64,000 nt of DNA, taken from positions 20,379 through 84,378 of the forward strand of contig JAJZRL010000001.1 in assembly GCA_021802705.1 (NCBI GenBank), in the 5' to 3' direction. Shown piece by piece: positions 4,728 to 37,727 of this stretch (within the stretch, counting starts at the first letter, position 1; every line of letters begins with the position of its first letter). The position numbers and the translations under genes are program-made. The stretch is from a bacterium (lineage in GTDB: Bacteria > Patescibacteriota > Minisyncoccia > Phycocordibacterales > Phycocordibacteraceae). Under the pieces are notes generated by a model, which saw nothing but the letters and a program-made list of their open reading frames with translations, was not told the DNA's origin and made no database searches.

Positions 4728-5327
4728 TCAGGACAGGAGCGGCTTTCCTTCGACTTCATCCATCCAAACGCTCAAACCGAGCCCGACGACGAAGTTGAGG
4801 CTCGGAGCAACGCCTGAAACGTAAAATAACTTCCGAAGAAGAAGGTTCTCGAGCGGACGCCACAAAATGTACCCCTCGCCCTGCTGAGCATAGAAGAAGA
4901 TCGCCCGCGGTCTGCATCGAGTCCATTCTATCTGAGCGAACGAATGACGGATCTCATCACTCAGAATCATCGGCCTGATGGTGAGTCTCATCGACCACGA
5001 ATGTTTGAATACTTTGCGAAACGAGTTTTCGGTGAGCGTACTGATCTCGACGGTTTCTCTGAAGTTTCTATCGAAGGAGTCCAGCGGGACTCGCAACTCG
5101 AGCACGCTGCCTTGGTAGATCTCGTCGCAGAGAACGACAAGGCGGCGGGCGTACTTGAGAAAATCACTCGCTGTGATATTGCCGAATCTCTTCTTGAGTA
5201 CTGCATGGTAATTCCATTCGAGTCTTGCCACATTCAGAAGATACTGCGGAGCATCTTCGGTGCCGATCGATTCGTTGTCGGAAAACAGGCTTGCTGTCGC
5301 TGTCATAACTGGTCCCTCCTCAGTCAA
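4728..5327 (-). CDS. Hypothetical protein (199 aa), no recognisable domain; lies between tRNA-Pro pair and tRNA-Val
   Basis: Long ORF. The antisense ORF 4944..5480 is rejected. Composition appears less GC-rich than flanking genes. Confidence 0.35.
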   Translation of the reverse strand: MTEEGPVMTATASLFSDNESIGTEDAPQYLLNVARLEWNYHAVLKKRFGNITASDFLKYARRLVVLCDEIYQGSVLELRVPLDSFDRNFRETVEISTLTENSFRKVFKHSWSMRLTIRPMILSDEIRHSFAQIEWTRCRPRAIFFYAQQGEGYILWRPLENLLLRKLFYVSGVAPSLNFVVGLGLSVWMDEVEGKPLLS

Positions 5328-5465
5328 GGTACAATTTTACCTGAGCACGATGTTCAGGCTTTTGCAGCAAAGCATACATACGACAAAAATCAAGACGCAG
5401 AACGCGCCGCACGATGTGTTTGTCGAGCCTCGTCCGCGGCGGCGCGCGGCTCGGCCTTCTCAACA

Positions 5466-5542
5466 TGGTGCGCTCTATAGGATTCGAACCTATGACCTTT
5501 CGCGTGTGAAGCGAACGCTCTAACCAACTGAGCTAAGAGCGC
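5466..5542 (-). tRNA. tRNA-Val (anticodon CAC), CCA encoded
   Basis: GCGCTCTTAGCTCAGTTGGTTAGAGC...TTCACAC loop...GGTTCGAATCC...AGAGCGCACCA. Confidence 0.8.
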
Positions 5543-5733
5543 GTACACTGAGTACCATATCAGAAATCCAAGCAGATTCCCATATTTATTGGTTGAGCGA
5601 ACGACTGGCTACCCTTTCTTAATCTCTTCAAGGTCAGCAAGCAGACGACGCATGTCTTGTATGAGCTGTCCAAACGAAGAAAGGGATGTAAAAAGAACGC
5701 GCCCTGAGTGTTTCAGAGCGCGCTTATTTTAGT

Positions 5734-7134
5734 TTATCTTTGCGTCATATAGGCGATTGCATCGGCTGCACCGTAAGAACTATTCTCATCTTGCATGAGA
5801 TGACGTAAGAAACTGACATCGTCACCCATAGTGAAGATCGGCGGTTCATTCGGATTCCCGAGCCCTGCAGCTGAGAAAAGTCCGTTGCACAGACACCGAA
5901 CCCCTATAGTGTCTTCTGATTTTCCACCTTTGAGGAGATACGTATCGAGAGGTTCGCTCGAGCAACGGAAGCCAATCTTGCCGTCCTTTCGCTCATACGG
6001 AACAATTAAGATGGACAGGTCACATATCCGCGTGCGAGCGGCATACACTGTCGGGTCGGATTGCGTGCCCGGCAATTGCACCACCTTGAACGGAAATCCT
6101 GTCGGTGACGTGCTCGGATCCGTGCGAATGAAGAGTTCGCCACGATAGCCACGACGCCTCATCTCGGAACGGAACGCGGGCTGCACGCCGGAATCTTCGC
6201 TGAGTGCAAAGATAGAACCAGCCTGGACACCCTTCGCACCCAGTGCCTGTGCTTTCGCGAGACCTTCGGGCGAGGCGAACGACCCGCCAATCCAGAACGG
6301 GATGCCCAGGTCTCGAAGCTTTTGGAATGCCACCTCGTCTTTTGGGCCGTAGACAGACTGTCCGCTTTCATCGAACACTCCTTTCTCTCGAGGCGGTGCA
6401 TTGTGGCCTCCCGCAGTCGGTAGTTCGACAACGAACCCCTGAATACTGCCTCGCGACAAGCGTTTGACCATGAGCGATGCCAGCACGTCTGTCGAGACAA
6501 TAGGGAGAAATCCTGGCCGCTTGAGTTCAGGAAGCTTCGCTTTGAAGAAGGCGCTCGGATCGAAACTGACGGTCCCCGCCCCACTGCTTTTTCCCTCTAT
6601 CGAAACACGATAGATCGGCATGCCTCCTGCGGCAATCGCATCGAGAACACTCGGTATCTGAAGCGTTATTCCCGCCCCCATCGTCACGAAATCAACGTTA
6701 GCAAGCATCGCTCCAGTGATATGGTAGATGTGAGGAATCTGGATTTTCTCCAAGTAATTCACGCTGACCGGATTCTCGTGCCCTTCTTTGGCAAGCCACA
6801 CGAACGCAAAACTTGCCGCTACCGTAAGCGCAATCAGGTCAGCGCGCGGTTGCATGCTAAATGCTGGCACCACCTTGAATTCTTGATCGGCGGAAATACC
6901 ACCCTCGACGAAGTACTTTTTAATGATACGTTCGGCTATGCCCGGGAACGGGAAGTGCGCGAGCGCACGTCGGTAGTCACCGCCTGGATCTCCAGACTGG
7001 AGAATTCTGGCTAGCAAACGTTCGGCGCCGACGCAAGAGACCGTGCCGAGCGCGCCATGACAAGAGCATACTTTGGCGAGAAAAGGAGTCGATATGTAGA
7101 CCCCCATCCCTCCCTGGATGATTGATCGATTCAT
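5734..7134 (-). CDS. Nitronate monooxygenase (2-nitropropane dioxygenase/FabK-like) family flavoprotein, long form
   Basis: N-terminal IIQGGMGVYIS...AKVCSCHGALGTVS motif of the NMO family. TIM-barrel-like spacing. Confidence 0.65.
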   Translation of the reverse strand: MNRSIIQGGMGVYISTPFLAKVCSCHGALGTVSCVGAERLLARILQSGDPGGDYRRALAHFPFPGIAERIIKKYFVEGGISADQEFKVVPAFSMQPRADLIALTVAASFAFVWLAKEGHENPVSVNYLEKIQIPHIYHITGAMLANVDFVTMGAGITLQIPSVLDAIAAGGMPIYRVSIEGKSSGAGTVSFDPSAFFKAKLPELKRPGFLPIVSTDVLASLMVKRLSRGSIQGFVVELPTAGGHNAPPREKGVFDESGQSVYGPKDEVAFQKLRDLGIPFWIGGSFASPEGLAKAQALGAKGVQAGSIFALSEDSGVQPAFRSEMRRRGYRGELFIRTDPSTSPTGFPFKVVQLPGTQSDPTVYAARTRICDLSILIVPYERKDGKIGFRCSSEPLDTYLLKGGKSEDTIGVRCLCNGLFSAAGLGNPNEPPIFTMGDDVSFLRHLMQDENSSYGAADAIAYMTQR

Positions 7135-32462: not shown

Positions 32463-33092
32463 TTAAGACAGGAGCGCAAACATGAAGGTTTGCGTGCCTT
32501 CGCACCATTTGAATCCGCACCTTACCGATTCCTTATCATAGACGATGTGCATCCTCTGCGCCCGCGCGATACTCTCCTTGCGAGAGAGCGCACAGCCGAC
32601 TTCCGGATTCCCGAGCGGATAATAATCCGATTGTCGGGCGGGAAGCACATGGACCGTCTCGATCCCCAGTATGCGGCCGAATGAGATAGCGACGCGATAC
32701 AGGAGCCTCTCCCAATGGAGCGGGCGAAGATGTTCCTTTCTCCCCCGCACGCCTTGCACCTGCCGGACGACGAGACGGTTCGACCTGATCTCGAAGCCGA
32801 TAGCGGCGATCGGGATGACCGCTGACCCTTCCCGTGCGCAGAGCACGAACCCGAAGCTGGTTTCCCAGTAGATCTCCGGATGCGGCATGCGCCGGCCAGA
32901 GTTTCTTGCGGCCGAAAAATCAAGCAGGTATCGGCTTGCGTTATGACGATGCGTTTGCGACTTCTTTATGTGTTCTTCGATGAGCGCGTGAAAACCGTCA
33001 GGCGCGCTTCGGGACAGGAAGTCGCGGATTCCCTGTGCCCGCGCGGCAAAACGACGTTCAAAGAAGTTCTGCAGAAGGGCGATAGGATTCAC
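32463..33092 (-). CDS. Hypothetical protein (209 aa), possibly divergent GNAT-like fold
   Basis: GTG start with GGGAG SD. Own TTGACA-like promoter element upstream. VRQVQGVRGRKE resembles a GNAT motif-A Q/RxxGxG/A, but weakly. Confidence 0.35.
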   Translation of the reverse strand: MNPIALLQNFFERRFAARAQGIRDFLSRSAPDGFHALIEEHIKKSQTHRHNASRYLLDFSAARNSGRRMPHPEIYWETSFGFVLCAREGSAVIPIAAIGFEIRSNRLVVRQVQGVRGRKEHLRPLHWERLLYRVAISFGRILGIETVHVLPARQSDYYPLGNPEVGCALSRKESIARAQRMHIVYDKESVRCGFKWCEGTQTFMFALLS

Positions 33093-33242: not shown

Positions 33243-33809
33243 TCATGAGGTTGATTGCCTGTTCATGATTCCATAGTGCTTCACGTTTATTCGAACCCCT
33301 TTCTTTACCCGGGCGGATACGAAAAGCCCATCCTGGGTGAAACCGACACCCTCGAGCACTTTGGCGATGCCGATGTTGCCCGCCTCTGCCTCAGCGCTCA
33401 CACGCATGAGGCCAAGGGTATCGAAGGCGTAGTCGACAATTGCGCGCACGACCTCGGTCGCCGCACCTTTGCCCCACCAGGTCTTGTCGCCGATGACGAT
33501 GCCTATCTCCGCAATCTTGTGATACTCGTTTATGTCGGTGAGCGCCACCGTGCCGATGGTCTCACCAGTTTTCGTTTCGATCGACCAGTAGCGGCCTTCT
33601 TCATCGGCTTCGCATTCTTTAATGTATGCGTACTGTCCGGCGATATCCTGCGACTCGTTCATCGGCTCGGGCATGTGCTCCTGCACCGCTTCGTCCACGT
33701 CCCACTTCTGCCAGAGCTCCGCGTCCGACTCTTTGAAGGGACGGATGAGATAATGCTCGGTCTCAAGGATCGGCGATTTCATGAGGTGAGTATAGCAAAC
33801 ATCGGTCAC
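33243..33809 (-). CDS. GNAT family N-acetyltransferase, RimJ/RimL-like
   Basis: YLIRPFKESDAELW...IGIVIGDKTWWGKGAATEVVRAIVDYAF...GFTQDG pattern of RimL/RimJ-type GNATs. Confidence 0.75.
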   Translation of the reverse strand: MTDVCYTHLMKSPILETEHYLIRPFKESDAELWQKWDVDEAVQEHMPEPMNESQDIAGQYAYIKECEADEEGRYWSIETKTGETIGTVALTDINEYHKIAEIGIVIGDKTWWGKGAATEVVRAIVDYAFDTLGLMRVSAEAEAGNIGIAKVLEGVGFTQDGLFVSARVKKGVRINVKHYGIMNRQSTS

Positions 33810-33830
33810 GCTGATGTTAGAGTACCGTCA

Positions 33831-33947
33831 TGAAGATAAGACCGGTAAAACAGAAAGACGATACGGCCTGCGGCCCGACTTCCATTCTTATGGCCAGCCG
33901 TTATTTGGGTACGAAACTCATCTTCGAAGAGATGAGGACAGTATAAC
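33831..33947 (+). pseudogene. Remnant of a C39 bacteriocin-processing peptidase domain (N-terminal 38 codons then stop)
   Basis: Own translation MKIRPVKQKDDTACGPTSILMASRYLGTKLIFEEMRTV*. Q-x5-6-CGP(A/T)...LM is the catalytic Cys motif of C39 peptidase/ABC exporter N-termini. Different frame from track ORF 33814..34068. Confidence 0.4.
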
Positions 33948-34077
33948 GCTCTCAGAGCCAGAGACAGGCAGGCTGGTCACCTTAGAAAAGATGAAGTTCA
34001 TATGGCTTTGGATGAGTTACGACGATATGTGGTATCCGGAGAAGGATACCGATATCAAACTGCGATAGATGTGTGTA

Positions 34078-34121
34078 CTGAAAAAGAAAAAGCTCAAGTA
34101 GGCGTTAACCTTCTTGAGCTT
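34078..34121 (-). terminator. Rho-independent terminator ending the modification-enzyme operon
   Basis: Minus-strand AAGCTCAAG-N14-CTTGAGCTT hairpin followed by TTTCTTTTTC. Confidence 0.5.
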
Positions 34122-34134
34122 CAGAGCGACAATA

Positions 34135-35376
34135 CTAGCCGTGGATGTATGCTAGCAAAGCCATGAGAACATGGAACACCAGACTGCTGGTTATGTCTCG
34201 ATGATCCTGGTCTGGGCACAATTCCACAATGTCAATACCGATTACCTCATTGTGTAGGCACACAGCTTCGAAAAGCCGCAACAACTGGCGTGGTTGCATG
34301 CCCATGGGAACGGGAGTGCCGGTTCCCGGCGCGTAGACGGGATCAAGAACGTCTACGTCCAGCGAGATATAGCACTTCTTTCCCACCGGAAGACTTGCGA
34401 CGACCTGTGCCCAGCTGCTCTCGATCTCGGCTTGCATAACGGTCGTGCATCGATTGTTTTCTTCCGGCGTCCCGGGAAAACCCCGTATGCCAAGCTGAAC
34501 GATCGTATGCGTTTGGCATGTATGCAACATCCGCCGCATCACGTTGCCATGGTGGTGAGTGGTCCCAGGAATCCATTCCCCGAGGTCGGTATGGGCATCG
34601 AAATGCACCACAACCGTCTCTCCACCGTGCACACTCGCGCAGCCAGCGATAGCCGGCTCAGAGATGGAATGATCACCACCGACACAAACCGGGATGCCGC
34701 CTCTCTTGCAAATTTCCGCAGTCGCACGCTTTATGCGAGAAAAGAATCGCTCCGGAGATTCTCCAAGGATGTGAGAAACGTTCCCCACGTCCACGAACTG
34801 ACTACCCACAAGCGTCATGCGGCCTAGTTCTGCGTTGAACCAGCCACGATTAGCGCGCGTGAAGATGCCGCGATCATAGGTCAGGAAACGACCCGAGATT
34901 TCCCGGAGCTTGTTCGGTCCTAGTTTCGCGCCTGATTTGCCGGTAGTACCGAAGTCCACTCCGGCCCCACAGAACACGAACGCGCCAGGAACCACCTCTT
35001 CCAACTTACCCGAAGGGCAGCAAACGAAGGTCAGTGGCTGAACTGCGACCACATCGCTATCCGCCAGTTCCTGAGAACGTGCCAGCAACGAATCCTTCTC
35101 GCCGCTCCAACAGAGGACCGACTGCATAATCAACTCATCGACATATACTGCAATCGATCGTTGATCTGCTTGATCCTCAATCCCGAGCGCGCAGTATAGC
35201 TCGTCCAAGGTGATTGGGGTCTGGCACATCCGTAACAGATATAGCGCTTGTTCGTTTACAGATACTCGTGTGCCAGCAATACTATTGAAGATGACCTGTT
35301 CGCCGATTTTTGCATCGTACGATTCAAGTGCCAAGTGAGCTGAGAGCTCAAACGTGCGTGACGTTCGGTTGTCCAT
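34135..35376 (-). CDS. Arginase/agmatinase (ureohydrolase) family enzyme with N-terminal PqqD-like RiPP-recognition-element (RRE) domain
   Basis: Intact binuclear-Mn motifs GGDHS, DAHTD, SLDVDVLDP and substrate loop FCGAGVDFGTTGKSGAKLGP. N-terminal about 110 aa VNEQALYLLRMCQTPITLDELYCALGI...VYVDELIMQSVL is PqqD/RRE-like. GAGGAG SD before ATG 35376. Confidence 0.65.
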   Translation of the reverse strand: MDNRTSRTFELSAHLALESYDAKIGEQVIFNSIAGTRVSVNEQALYLLRMCQTPITLDELYCALGIEDQADQRSIAVYVDELIMQSVLCWSGEKDSLLARSQELADSDVVAVQPLTFVCCPSGKLEEVVPGAFVFCGAGVDFGTTGKSGAKLGPNKLREISGRFLTYDRGIFTRANRGWFNAELGRMTLVGSQFVDVGNVSHILGESPERFFSRIKRATAEICKRGGIPVCVGGDHSISEPAIAGCASVHGGETVVVHFDAHTDLGEWIPGTTHHHGNVMRRMLHTCQTHTIVQLGIRGFPGTPEENNRCTTVMQAEIESSWAQVVASLPVGKKCYISLDVDVLDPVYAPGTGTPVPMGMQPRQLLRLFEAVCLHNEVIGIDIVELCPDQDHRDITSSLVFHVLMALLAYIHG

Positions 35377-36463
35377 CGGTAATCTCCTCATCTGATTGCG
35401 TGCCGCAGACGGCACAGTCGTGACGTTTGCGGTATGCCCGCAGGTGCAGGCCATAGGTCAGAAAGTCGACTTCCGCTGCCTGGTTAATCAGGGTCGGCGG
35501 AGCGAAACCTGTCATGACCTTGAGCGCTTCTATGACATGGTAGTTCGCGATAATGGCACTGATTGCCCCCAGATTCCCGCCCTTTATTTGGGCGGGAGTG
35601 ACCTGTAGGTGTATATACCCCGCAGAACGTAGTTGATGCTCGAGCGTATGCTCATAACACAACCAGCACCCTGACCGTTTTGGAACGATAGTCGGGCCGA
35701 TAAACCCTAAGTGACCATCGTATCCGCCACACAAGATGTGTGGAATCCCTCTTGGATAACATGCTCTGGAAACGATACGGTTTATCTCGTCCGTCCCGGG
35801 TTCATCAGCACAGCAAATCACAAGATCGGCACCTGTGGCTACCTCCGAGCAAGCTTGAAGAGAATCCACCAGACGATGCACCTGCTCCACCTCAAGCGCC
35901 GGATCGACGAGCCGCAATTTCTGAGCAAGCATCTCTGCCTTAGGCAGGCCGATACAGGCTATGTCGTATAGGCATTGCCTGTTTAGGTTCGCTAACTCGA
36001 CCACATCATTGTCCACTAGCGTCAGCTTCTTTACCCCTGCCAGCACTAGACCGTATGCGACCCAACTGCCGATACCGCCAAGACCGATGATAGCTACGTG
36101 AGAAGCATCTATCGCCTCTTGCATGTCGGGACTTTCGTCGTTTGCAAACCCGGCAAGAAAATTCGCTTGGGTCGCAAAGCGGGTTCCCTCATAGCGATCG
36201 TAGATACGGTCACGTGTACGCAGCAATTTCTGGTCGTACAATAGTGCCGCCAAGCCACTTACGGACGCTTCGCTCACGCCAATCGCCGTTGATATATCGG
36301 CTATCGTGTGAGTTCCGTCGAACATCCGGACGCATCGCAGCGTATGCGCATCAACCTCGAAAGGCATGATCACACTGCTGCTTTCGACCAGGAAGTTGAG
36401 TTCATATCCACCTGCCAACGGCCGATACAGGACGGATATGCCATCTCTAATGGCAGGTTTCAT
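35348..36463 (-). CDS. MccB-like ThiF/E1 adenylyltransferase with N-terminal RRE/peptide-clamp domain
   Basis: E1 nucleotide motif VAIIGLGGIGSWVAYGLVLAGVKKLTLVDNDVVELANLNRQ. Two CxxC pairs (CWLC, CAVC) as in MccB/MoeB Zn site. N-terminal VDAHTLRCVRMFDGTHTIADISTAIGVSEASVSGLAALLYDQKLL is RRE-like. AAAGGAGAG SD. Confidence 0.7.
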   Translation of the reverse strand: MKPAIRDGISVLYRPLAGGYELNFLVESSSVIMPFEVDAHTLRCVRMFDGTHTIADISTAIGVSEASVSGLAALLYDQKLLRTRDRIYDRYEGTRFATQANFLAGFANDESPDMQEAIDASHVAIIGLGGIGSWVAYGLVLAGVKKLTLVDNDVVELANLNRQCLYDIACIGLPKAEMLAQKLRLVDPALEVEQVHRLVDSLQACSEVATGADLVICCADEPGTDEINRIVSRACYPRGIPHILCGGYDGHLGFIGPTIVPKRSGCWLCYEHTLEHQLRSAGYIHLQVTPAQIKGGNLGAISAIIANYHVIEALKVMTGFAPPTLINQAAEVDFLTYGLHLRAYRKRHDCAVCGTQSDEEITDGQPNVTHV

Positions 36464-36530
36464 GAGACTCTCCTTTCAGACGTGAAAGGGGATCGCTCGC
36501 GCAATCCCCCTAGTTGTAACCGACCTGAGA

Positions 36531-36728
36531 TTAGGCGCGGCGGTGACGGAGACCCCGCATGTATGCGTCGTCGGAACGACGCGCCAACGGGGTGATTTTC
36601 AGCTCAGCGACCTTGAACTTGAAGGGTTGCTGATTGGCGCTGGTGCTGGGCTTCTGATTCCCGGCGTTTGCGGTTGCGGTGTGCATATTCATCTCCATGA
36701 TTGACGTCAACGAACGGATAAGAACCAT
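36531..36728 (-). CDS. Candidate precursor peptide (51-65 aa, Arg-rich C-terminus)
   Basis: Only coding frame in the 280-nt gap upstream of the E1 gene: M(VLIRSLTSIMEMN)MHTATANAGNQKPSTSANQQPFKFKVAELKITPLARRSDDAYMRGLRHRRA*. Internal GGAG gives a good SD for the MHTATA start. Confidence 0.35.
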   Translation of the reverse strand: MVLIRSLTSIMEMNMHTATANAGNQKPSTSANQQPFKFKVAELKITPLARRSDDAYMRGLRHRRA

Positions 36729-36746
36729 TTCCTATCCACAAGAAAT

Positions 36747-37727
36747 CTACAACAAAGCGCGATAAAAGTCAATGTAAACGCCCGCAAGTTCTGCGGCGTT
36801 CTCGGCCTCCATGAGCTGCGCGCGTAGCGGAGCCGCGCCTTCAAACCCGATAACGAACGCCTTGATGTGCTTCTTGAGTATCGAAAAATTCTTCGGCGGC
36901 GAGAGCTTCTCGAAAGCGTACGCAAGCTCCATAAGCGCCGAAAATTTCTCTTCGCGCGGGACATCGTCAGCTTTTCGTCCGGCAAAAACCCACGGATTGC
37001 CGAAAAGCGCGCGACCGAGCATAGCACCGTCGCATCCCGACGCCGCAACTTTCGCCTTCGCATCCTCGAGATCGCTCACGTCCCCGTTTCCGATGAGCAG
37101 CACTTCCGGATCGACGGCATCGCGGATCTCTACCGCCTTTTTCATGAGATTCCAATCAGCCGGCACGAGCGAGAGGTCTTTGCGGGTACGTAAATGGAGC
37201 GTGATGGCGGCCGGAGCGGCCTTAAGAAGCGTCGGGAGCCACTCATCGAGAGTCTCTTTGTGGTATCCGACACGGGTCTTGACGGAAACCGGCAAGCCGC
37301 TCGCTCTTTTCGCGGCATGGATAACCGCCTGCGCGATTTCCGGAGTCCGTATCATCGCGGAACCGCAGCCTTGTTTCTCGACACTCGCATCCGGACAACC
37401 CATATTGATATCGATGCCGTCAAAACCGAGCTTCTCGATAAGGGCGGCGGCGTACGCGATCATATCGGGATCGCTTGAGAATACTTGCGCGACGATCGGG
37501 CGTTCGGCAGGGCTCTTCTTGAGGTCGCGCATGAGCGGATTCTCTTCATCAGGCACCTTCTTTATCTCGCGCGTATGGTAGAGCCCGTCCGCTGAAACGA
37601 ACTCGGTCCAGAAGACATCGGGTGCGCCGCGGGCCGCGACAAGCGCGCGAAACGCCGCATCGGTCACGTCCGCCATCGGCGCCATGACGAAAAAAGGTTT
37701 TGGCAACTTGCTCCAAAATGATGCCAT
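36747..37727 (-). CDS. tRNA-dihydrouridine synthase
   Basis: FVMAPMADVTD...INMGCP...catalytic Cys context and TIM-barrel Dus family pattern. Confidence 0.85.
   Translation of the reverse strand: MASFWSKLPKPFFVMAPMADVTDAAFRALVAARGAPDVFWTEFVSADGLYHTREIKKVPDEENPLMRDLKKSPAERPIVAQVFSSDPDMIAYAAALIEKLGFDGIDINMGCPDASVEKQGCGSAMIRTPEIAQAVIHAAKRASGLPVSVKTRVGYHKETLDEWLPTLLKAAPAAITLHLRTRKDLSLVPADWNLMKKAVEIRDAVDPEVLLIGNGDVSDLEDAKAKVAASGCDGAMLGRALFGNPWVFAGRKADDVPREEKFSALMELAYAFEKLSPPKNFSILKKHIKAFVIGFEGAAPLRAQLMEAENAAELAGVYIDFYRALL

Follow-up and report, generated by a model that had tools for sequence, protein, structure and literature searches.

A compact minus-strand gene cassette in a member of the Phycocordibacteraceae (Patescibacteriota) encodes what we take, with a probability of roughly 0.8, to be a peptide-modifying system of the RiPP (ribosomally synthesized and posttranslationally modified peptide) type. 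The window, by which we mean the whole stretch of DNA analyzed, covers 64,000 nucleotides (nt) of contig JAJZRL010000001.1 (positions 20,379 to 84,378 of the forward strand; assembly GCA_021802705.1), and the cassette lies within it. Its core consists of a small arginine-rich open reading frame (ORF), an adenylating enzyme of the ThiF-like (E1) family, and a PF00491 ureohydrolase, here called the arginase. The N-terminal domains of both enzymes are, on structural modeling, RiPP recognition elements (RREs). The data show the gene content, the folds, the catalytic residues, the co-occurrence of the genes, and the existence of a precursor family. Judged from sequence, the cassette probably converts arginine (Arg) to ornithine (Orn) in combination with adenylation of a peptide C terminus, and we propose tentatively that the product is specifically a macrolactam linking Orn to the C terminus. 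A preliminary description made from the DNA letters had placed all of these genes correctly, and its central observation was confirmed.

Related loci were retrieved with an E1 alignment, and conserved neighbors were counted by all-against-all clustering of 32 loci, each 6 kb or longer, from Patescibacteria or metagenomes. The E1 and RRE-arginase genes are adjacent or overlapping in 32/32 loci, and the homologous two-gene cassettes with small ORFs that the preliminary description had recommended looking for elsewhere thus exist at dozens of independent loci. Where a source is named, the homologues come from Paceibacterota, Kaiserbacteria, Parcubacteria, or the Patescibacteria group (metagenome contigs and metagenome-assembled genomes), and the cassette is so far confined to Patescibacteria-type genomes. 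L087 and L088, the closest relatives (62% E1 identity), share the layout of the window exactly, with a C39 peptidase gene that is intact and a GNAT acetyltransferase gene. A C39 gene adjoins the E1/arginase pair in 22/32 loci, counting the remnant in the window, and is usually convergent after the arginase gene; a homologous GNAT gene adjoins the cassette in 14/32. Besides these four genes, the only recurrent neighbors were antisense shadow ORFs and subclade-limited genes, and no transporter, ThiS/MoaD, or YcaO gene was conserved in the 32 loci. Flanking genes vary from lineage to lineage. One 775-amino-acid (aa) protein found in a search of representative sequences (P0245) joins RRE-E1 and RRE-arginase in a single polypeptide, either as a natural fusion or through loss of a stop codon. 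Retention of the cassette across many lineages with genomes of ~1 Mb implies a function worth its cost.

The Arg-rich ORF of 51 to 65 codons noted in the preliminary description is present and ends in PLARRSDDAYMRGLRHRRA. Its most likely product, since GGAG sits 6 nt before ATG 36686, is the 51-aa peptide MHTATANAGNQKPSTSANQQPFKFKVAELKITPLARRSDDAYMRGLRHRRA, with a leader-like motif, FKVAELKITPL, and the tail MRGLRHRRA. Because ORFs of this size are mostly not called as genes, precursors were sought by six-frame translation of the related loci and a custom hidden Markov model (HMM) built from 13 tails found by hand. Among 15,895 translated segments, the HMM matched 43 ORFs, at as many loci, with E values of ≤6e-9, and the next match had an E value of 0.033; a conserved small ORF does accompany homologous cassettes, as the preliminary description had asked. 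As a query in a protein database search, the precursor matched nothing but the identical protein, and this 65-aa protein occurs on 9 contigs from other samples. Across loci, the precursors range from ~30 to 65 aa, and the usual position of the ORF is just upstream of the E1 gene.

Conservation in the precursors is concentrated in two places. The 33 unique sequences share a leader-like motif at positions -28 to -18, [IVL]-[DN]-x-x-K-[VL]-x-[IV]-x-x-L, whose alternating hydrophobic pattern resembles that of a beta strand, and a tail with the consensus [ML]-R-[GT]-[LVI]-[RH]-R-[RPT]-R-[AS]-stop, with no insertions or deletions in the last 9 residues. Arg at position -8 is invariant (33/33) and is followed by Gly or Thr at -7. 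Position -5 is Arg in 30 sequences and His in 3, position -4 is Arg in 32 and His in 1, position -3 is Arg in 22, Pro in 10, and Thr in 1, position -2 is Arg in 32 and Thr in 1, and 31 sequences end in Ala and 2 in Ser, which bears out the earlier remark that the precursor does not end in Asn. No conserved nucleophile other than Arg was found in these tails. Asp occupies position -13 in 24/33, and Asn, Ser, Thr, or Val does so in the other 9. Five different codons are used for Arg(-8), and the stop, at a constant position, may be any of the three stop codons; this variation implies that the constraint acts on the precursor protein. On this sequence evidence, the small ORF is a real gene under selection.

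An Arg-codon leader peptide serving ribosome-mediated attenuation of the arginase operon, rather than a substrate, might also have 5 or 6 Arg codons at its end and a hairpin, often with a U-run, directly after it, upstream of an arginine-family hydrolase, as is seen in most loci. In one subclade, however, the ORF is divergent and on the strand opposite E1 (L003, 4602..4832, in a Kaiserbacteria genome; L010, L011, L090, L097, and L098), and in another it lies downstream of the arginase gene (L020, L107, L121, and L122). An attenuation leader acting purely in cis is ruled out by these arrangements. Conservation also extends beyond Arg, to the leader motif, Gly/Thr at -7, and the final Ala, and both enzymes have peptide-binding domains. 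We consider attenuation highly improbable and rejected it on the orientation and position of the ORF and on the non-Arg conservation.

The hairpin itself recurs. In the window it has a minimum free energy of -27.4 kcal/mol over 36466..36535 (70 nt; z score, -2.77) and is probably a partial terminator or an mRNA-stabilizing element. In most of the 26 folded loci in which the ORF precedes E1, the precursor stop codon is likewise followed by a strong hairpin, differing in sequence and often trailed by a U-run (L001, L005, L008, L009, L012 to L018, and L087 to L117 have one just 3' of the stop codon). This recurrence suggests a conserved partial terminator or stabilizer that may uncouple precursor expression from that of the enzymes.

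The E1 enzyme matches Pfam ThiF (PF00899) with an E value of 2.6e-43 over residues 112-350, and its translation carries IIGLGGIGSW, NLNRQ, CADEP, CWLC, and CAVC. Its sequence matches in the Protein Data Bank (PDB) are MoeB, MccB (E = 2e-18), ThiF, and PaaA (E = 1e-13; the phmmer alignment with PaaA spans residues 57-213). The full-length AlphaFold2 model (pLDDT, a measure of model confidence, 89.4) aligned in Foldseek to MccB at ranks 1-24 (E ~1e-24, ~365 columns) and to PaaA (E = 1e-20, 355 columns), in both cases with the N-terminal domain included, whereas ThiF, MoeB, and UBA5 matched only a core of ~270 columns. The MccB-type architecture claimed earlier thus holds over the full length of the protein, at an identity to MccB and PaaA of 18-19%. 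Among 37 homologues, the GxGGxG loop (G127, G129, G130, and G132), D151, K175, D220, and the four Zn cysteines (C266, C269, C350, and C353) do not vary, and N159 and Q163 hardly do. A PF00899 domain with intact ATP/Mg and structural Zn sites, an RRE fusion, and an adjacent precursor are the features of a catalytic ThiF-like adenylating enzyme of a RiPP pathway, and all were found here.

Three other roles for the E1 were weighed against these data. It could be a non-catalytic scaffold that presents the peptide to the arginase, like the ThiF-like partners of YcaO cyclodehydratases; weak NCBIfam matches to SagC and TOMM docking families point that way, and recruitment of this kind is noted in a review (PMC12596934). 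The invariance of the ATP/Mg and Zn residues in the 37 homologues argues against it, the arginase has its own RRE and so needs no presenter, and there is no YcaO gene in the loci. We rejected this reading, which we hold to be very improbable, on the intact catalytic residues and the RRE of the arginase.

Alternatively, the pair could belong to primary metabolism, as a free-substrate agmatinase or arginase beside a ThiF/MoeB sulfur-carrier E1, the small ORF being irrelevant. The top family matches are indeed to agmatinase and ThiF/MoeB, and the source annotations of the homologues read 'agmatinase' and 'molybdopterin-synthase adenylyltransferase'. All NCBIfam scores are nevertheless below their cutoffs: for E1, the ThiF model TIGR02356 gave 112 bits against 275, and MoeB models gave 78-88 against 266-449. 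No ThiS/MoaD-type carrier gene stands among the conserved neighbors of the related loci, so that the alternative which the preliminary description had itself raised, an E1 of the MoeB/ThiF type next to MoaD/ThiS, is contradicted on both counts. With RREs on both proteins and a small ORF conserved at the protein level, the primary-metabolism reading is largely refuted, and little weight is left to it.

The third role is that of a microcin C-like Trojan horse, in which E1 would place a nucleotide on the C-terminal residue, making a peptidyl-nucleotide toxin, and the GNAT would provide MccE-like immunity. MccB is the best structural match to E1, a GNAT gene is nearby, and there is a hairpin 3' of the precursor gene, placed similarly to the one between mccA and mccB. 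The MccB reaction, however, needs a C-terminal Asn, which passes through a succinimide to a stable N-P bond, and MccA is a 7-aa peptide ending in Asn. In the present family, 33/33 tails end in Ala or Ser, an acyl-adenylate would be labile, the obligatory arginase is left unexplained, and the GNAT has no MccE match at E < 1e-3. Phosphoramidate formation proceeds via a cyclic imide (PMC12596934). The heptapeptide ending in Asn that marks MccB proper is absent, and since the precursor lacks a C-terminal Asn, this is not a microcin C system; a peptidyl-nucleotide toxin of this type is very unlikely.

Two further E1 observations are recorded here. In another assembly of the organism of the window (L167, 2372..3487), E1 is broken into two ORFs (225 aa and 128 aa), reflecting either a frameshift variant or an assembly error. 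The closest E1 relatives outside Patescibacteria (29-31% identity) are in Siminovitchia thermophila (L019, 7801..11950) and Virgibacillus salarius (L021, 7893..11337), beside an LpxL-like acyltransferase (PF03279) and ABC or MFS transporters; in L019, a 21-aa ORF, MKVTKKGEVIREKSCFCVACT, lies just upstream. These Bacillota loci have neither arginase nor Arg-rich peptide and were rejected as members of the cassette; they look like a different, apparently uncharacterized ThiF-like peptide cluster.

The preliminary description had assigned an RRE to both enzymes. For E1, structure and sequence agree: a profile of the N-terminal domain matched the PqqD structure 5sxy (E = 0.002) and PaaA (E = 0.14) among PDB sequences, and the modeled domain aligns with the peptide clamps of PaaA and MccB, as expected of an RRE. 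For the arginase, the assignment held by structure and not by sequence profiles, and it therefore rests on structure, because the profiles gave nothing significant. A model of residues 1-128 from a 20-sequence alignment (pLDDT, ~88-94 over residues 11-90) has four strands followed by three helices, a predicted form of the RRE fold (a three-stranded sheet with a three-helix winged-helix bundle), and Foldseek agrees. The only sequence-level link for the arginase RRE is a weak alignment of the two N-terminal domains in the helix region (hhalign E = 2.8e-4, 41% probability). Among 1.84 billion proteins, the arginase N-domain profile found just 26 cluster representatives, nearly all of them ~400-aa fusions or fragments.

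The arginase matches PF00491 (E = 2.9e-57) and contains GGDHS, DAHTD, SLDVDVLDP, and IVEL. These supply the ligands of a binuclear Mn site and the Glu that contacts the guanidinium group. The metal-ligand columns (GGDHS, DAHxD, and DxDxxDP) are at least 95% conserved across 73 family members, in agreement with the complete arginase/agmatinase metal site described earlier, and from their sequences both enzymes look catalytically competent. The comparison with OspR-type peptide arginases did not survive: OspR is PF12640, to which the window enzyme has no match at E ≤ 1, the OspR motifs were not seen in the translation, and the enzyme is an agmatinase-like member of PF00491. Its core most resembles agmatinases, proclavaminate amidinohydrolase, and guanidinobutyrase. 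The enzyme does not fit the SpeB (free-agmatine) type of agmatinase, since it scores below the cutoffs (agmatinase TIGR01230, 160 bits against 174; PRK02190, 140 against 302; rocF, 72 bits) and has an extra N-terminal domain of 130 aa relative to the single-domain proteins of ~300-330 aa. In a neighbor-joining (NJ) tree of core domains, all 76 proteins with the N-domain and four other ~400-aa proteins form one clade, on a short stem without bootstrap support, apart from 40 agmatinases of ~320 aa. Grouping with free-substrate ureohydrolases, which was to count against a peptide substrate, is seen in the affinity of the core but not in the tree.

The better fit to agmatinase models (TIGR01230, as above, relative to rocF) would also suit a scheme in which agmatine, or a different guanidino amine, is joined to the C terminus by E1 and then trimmed to a putrescine amide by the hydrolase. 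Such a scheme accounts neither for the Arg-rich tail nor for Arg(-8), which is invariant, and an external amine is not used by any RiPP ThiF-like enzyme described in the part of PMC12596934 accessible to us. We regard it as a long shot.

A C39 pseudogene on the opposite strand, overlooked in the preliminary description, lies in the 325-bp gap between the arginase and GNAT genes. Codons 1-35, which include the catalytic ACGP, run directly into codons 104-157 (54 codons), read in a different frame; ~68 codons are deleted, there is an in-frame stop (LR*MC), and the remaining cassette is intact. L168, an independent assembly from the same organism, contains this 84-aa remnant ORF as well, and 21 related loci have intact C39 genes at the corresponding position. 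The stand-alone C39 proteins of the relatives match Pfam at 4e-12 and the ComA peptidase domain at E = 0.0017. With the window copy dead and no Gly-Gly motif in the last 32 residues of the 33 unique precursor tails, the locus does not fit a double-glycine leader peptidase system.

The GNAT downstream, described earlier as RimL-like, is present, but its closest solved relatives are spermidine/diamine N-acetyltransferases of the SpeG type (E ~1e-9); RimJ/RimL match far less well (E = 1e-4 to 8e-4), and among solved relatives there is no MccE at E < 1e-3. The accompanying suggestion of MccE-like self-immunity is unsupported, there being no MccE match and a GNAT gene in only 14/32 loci. Because the protein is closer to SpeG-type enzymes than to RimL or MccE, acetylation of Orn would be as plausible a role as immunity.

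This GNAT is also the starting point for a reading that keeps the cassette and changes the chemistry: Orn would be N-acetylated by the SpeG-like enzyme, and E1 would do something unrelated to Orn, such as forming a C-terminal cyclic imide (as EnfB does), activating Asp(-13/-12) (compare PaaA and GrcB on Glu), or ligating an external nucleophile. The closest solved relatives of the GNAT acetylate primary alkyl amines, Asp(-13) is present in 24/33 tails, GNAT acylation of Orn after a peptide arginase is known (PMC12703449), and EnfB, GrcB, and PaaA are chemical precedents (PMC12596934). On the other side, the GNAT is found in fewer than half of the loci while E1 and the arginase are always together, Asp(-13) is replaced in 9/33 tails, and the fixed spacing from Arg(-8) to the stop codon, together with the small last residue, points to the C terminus. 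Other chemistry on the same cassette is unlikely.

Returning to the pairing of Arg-to-Orn conversion with C-terminal adenylation, we can outline a pathway in which the substrate, the site, the order of steps, ring formation, and the biological role are all as we infer them. The small gene would be transcribed from its own promoter, and the hairpin between it and the enzyme genes would probably lead to an excess of precursor mRNA. The RREs of the two enzymes would bind the conserved leader segment one after the other. Ureohydrolases turn a guanidino group into an amine and urea, and the Mn-dependent agmatinase-like hydrolase would convert a peptidyl Arg to Orn plus urea, the likeliest target being Arg(-8), with the arginines of the RRxR tail as alternatives. 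E1, with ATP, would adenylate the terminal carboxylate of the small last residue (Ala/Ser); we place the reactive group at the C terminus because the distance from Arg(-8) to the stop codon is fixed and the last residue is small. In the outcome that we favor, the delta-amine of Orn would attack the acyl-adenylate and give an eight-residue, Arg-rich side-chain-to-tail macrolactam. In relatives, the stand-alone C39-like peptidase would probably remove the leader, and the GNAT may acetylate a free amine.

Several observations weigh against this picture. No single Arg within the RRxR tail is invariant. The C39 gene has decayed to a pseudogene in the window and is absent from about a third of the loci, and the last 32 residues of the 33 unique precursors contain no Gly-Gly site for it. 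The arginase core is closest to free-substrate agmatinases, and the stem of the RRE-arginase clade is short and lacks bootstrap support. Sequence profiles did not identify the arginase RRE (Pfam PqqD, E = 0.22; no RRE among PDB sequences), and the model of that domain falls below a pLDDT of 50 past residue 108. Finally, the cassette has no conserved transporter in the 32 loci, which is unusual for a secreted RiPP.

The features of the locus are collected in Table 1. Read along the minus strand over 33243-36772, they run from the promoter-like site through the small ORF, hairpin, RRE-E1, and RRE-arginase genes to the GNAT gene, with the C39 remnant on the plus strand. The promoter-like site is weak evidence because such sites are no more numerous in the region than in shuffled sequences. 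The E1 start codon is preceded by AAAGGAGAG. The arginase gene overlaps the 3' end of E1 by 29 nt and starts at ATG 35376, with GAGGAG 7 nt upstream; an earlier start at 35454 is not used, because the N termini of homologues align to ATG 35376.

Table 1. Features of the cassette in the window (coordinates are positions in the 64,000-nt stretch)
Feature	Position	Strand	Basis or remarks
Promoter-like site TTGACT-17-TAGATT	36744..36772	-	9/12 consensus matches; directly upstream of precursor ORF, overlaps 3' end of Dus gene
Putative precursor peptide gene	36531..36728 (longest ORF, 65 aa); likely start ATG 36686 (51 aa)	-	GGAG and profile
GC-rich hairpin, 11-bp stem, 4-nt loop, then UUU	36486..36511	-	Between precursor stop codon and E1 Shine-Dalgarno sequence
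Predicted RRE-fused ThiF-like (E1) adenylating enzyme, 371 aa	35348..36463	-	RRE at residues ~1-95 (36179..36463), adenylation domain at ~110-356
Predicted RRE-fused PF00491 ureohydrolase, agmatinase-like, 413 aa	34135..35376	-	RRE at residues ~1-105 (35062..35376), catalytic core at 133-413
C39 peptidase pseudogene	33830..34092	+	Found by tblastn (queries: intact C39 proteins of L087 and L005)
GNAT N-acetyltransferase (Acetyltransf_3)	33243..33809; likely start ATG 33782	-	Pfam 1.4e-28; start by homologue alignment

Some neighboring genes were seen only in parts of the family. Downstream of the GNAT gene, a 209-aa ORF (32463..33092, minus strand) matches nothing in Pfam or NCBIfam and lacks a counterpart in the related loci; it probably lies outside the cassette. 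In one subclade (L001, 2950..4507; L005, 2946..4503; L094; and L106), genes for a TrmB-family regulator and a 267-aa PLP-dependent (PALP) enzyme lie divergently upstream of the cassette, with TrmB also in L090; they may be extra tailoring or regulatory genes. A histidine-kinase-like membrane protein of ~558 aa is encoded near the cassette in eight divergent loci (L016, L018 at 5313..6989, L020, L108, L109, L113, L121, and L122), a subclade that has short 'VKVDQVG(L/F)RG' precursors.

Among known systems, the ThiF-like RiPP enzymes MccB, PaaA, GrcB, EnfB, and IndF adenylate a carboxylate that is then attacked by an intramolecular nucleophile (PMC12596934). The closest working analogue is IndF of the Streptococcus pneumoniae ind cluster, an RRE joined to a ThiF-like domain, whose minimal cluster consists of precursor, enzyme, and peptidase (PMC12596934). 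A conserved C-terminal motif of its precursor threads into the active site, and a side-chain-to-tail macrocycle forms via the adenylated C terminus (PMC12596934). IndF would thus share with the window E1 the combination of C-terminal adenylation and side-chain capture, which in the window is only inferred. The nucleophile of IndF, however, is a Trp indole nitrogen already in the peptide, whereas in the window the arginase would have to create it; the precursor motifs (NWYFI versus R-G-L-R-R-R-R-A), the host phyla, and the partner enzymes also differ. MccB and PaaA have in common with the window E1 the Zn Cys4 site, the ATP site, and the N-terminal peptide-clamp/RRE domain. PaaA acts on a Glu-Glu pair, and the window family departs from both enzymes in its precursor of ~30-65 aa ending in Ala or Ser, with no Asn or Glu-Glu requirement, and in its obligatory arginase partner. 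One paper counts 27,400 RRE-ThiF fusions, most of them uncharacterized, and the window family is therefore best seen as one such branch with an unusual obligatory partner.

Precedents for the arginase are fewer. We know of no earlier PF00491 peptide arginase with a fused RRE. The only precedent for a PF00491 enzyme acting on a peptide is KgrD of the enteropeptin pathway, which is Mn-dependent and converts peptidyl Arg to Orn (PMC12703449); its likeness to the window enzyme is only at the level of the Pfam family. KgrD acts on a thiomorpholine-modified Arg beside a radical-SAM enzyme in Enterococcus, whereas the window enzyme has a ThiF-like partner and a fused RRE. OspR-type enzymes (PF12640; landornamide and selidamides) have the motif EEH(N/H)EAF together with LDIDLDYFSC, and in the selidamides the Orn made by the arginase is further acylated by GNATs (PMC12703449). 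They belong with the window arginase to the ureohydrolase superfamily and carry out the reaction proposed for it, but differ in Pfam family and motifs; the accessible part of PMC12703449 does not mention for OspR the fused RRE present in the window enzyme.

In the searchable literature, whose coverage is incomplete, we found no description of a RiPP that pairs a ThiF-like enzyme with an arginase, of an RRE-fused agmatinase, or of such a cluster in the Candidate Phyla Radiation (CPR), and the earlier claim that the pairing is undescribed stands within that limit. We present the locus as a candidate for a new family of RiPPs rather than as biology of a new kind. Whether its two-enzyme logic, in which an RRE-guided arginase unmasks Orn(-8) and an RRE-guided ThiF-like enzyme joins it to the adenylated C terminus, makes a new RiPP class is doubtful at present. 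If it does, RiPP biochemistry would gain a new pairing of reactions, with a partner enzyme creating the nucleophile where other systems use nucleophiles that already exist in the peptide, and there would be a second context, and only a second, for a PF00491 arginase on a peptide. A system of a 51-aa peptide and two enzymes is small and could become a tool for making Orn-containing or cyclic peptides.

In polymyxin- and bacitracin-type macrolactams, thioesterase domains of nonribosomal peptide synthetases close a cationic ring of 7 or 8 residues through Dab or Lys. If the favored model is right, the product of the cassette would share their side-chain-to-tail topology while being ribosomal and containing Arg-derived Orn, and the comparison is one of analogy only. 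RiPP pathways were hardly known in the CPR before graspetide clusters were described in 2022 (PMC8939145). Possibly, the peptide is an effector directed at the hosts or competitors of these genome-reduced bacteria, and a macrolactam, if that is what is made, would be a ribosomal, polymyxin-like cationic product from bacteria of the Patescibacteria type.

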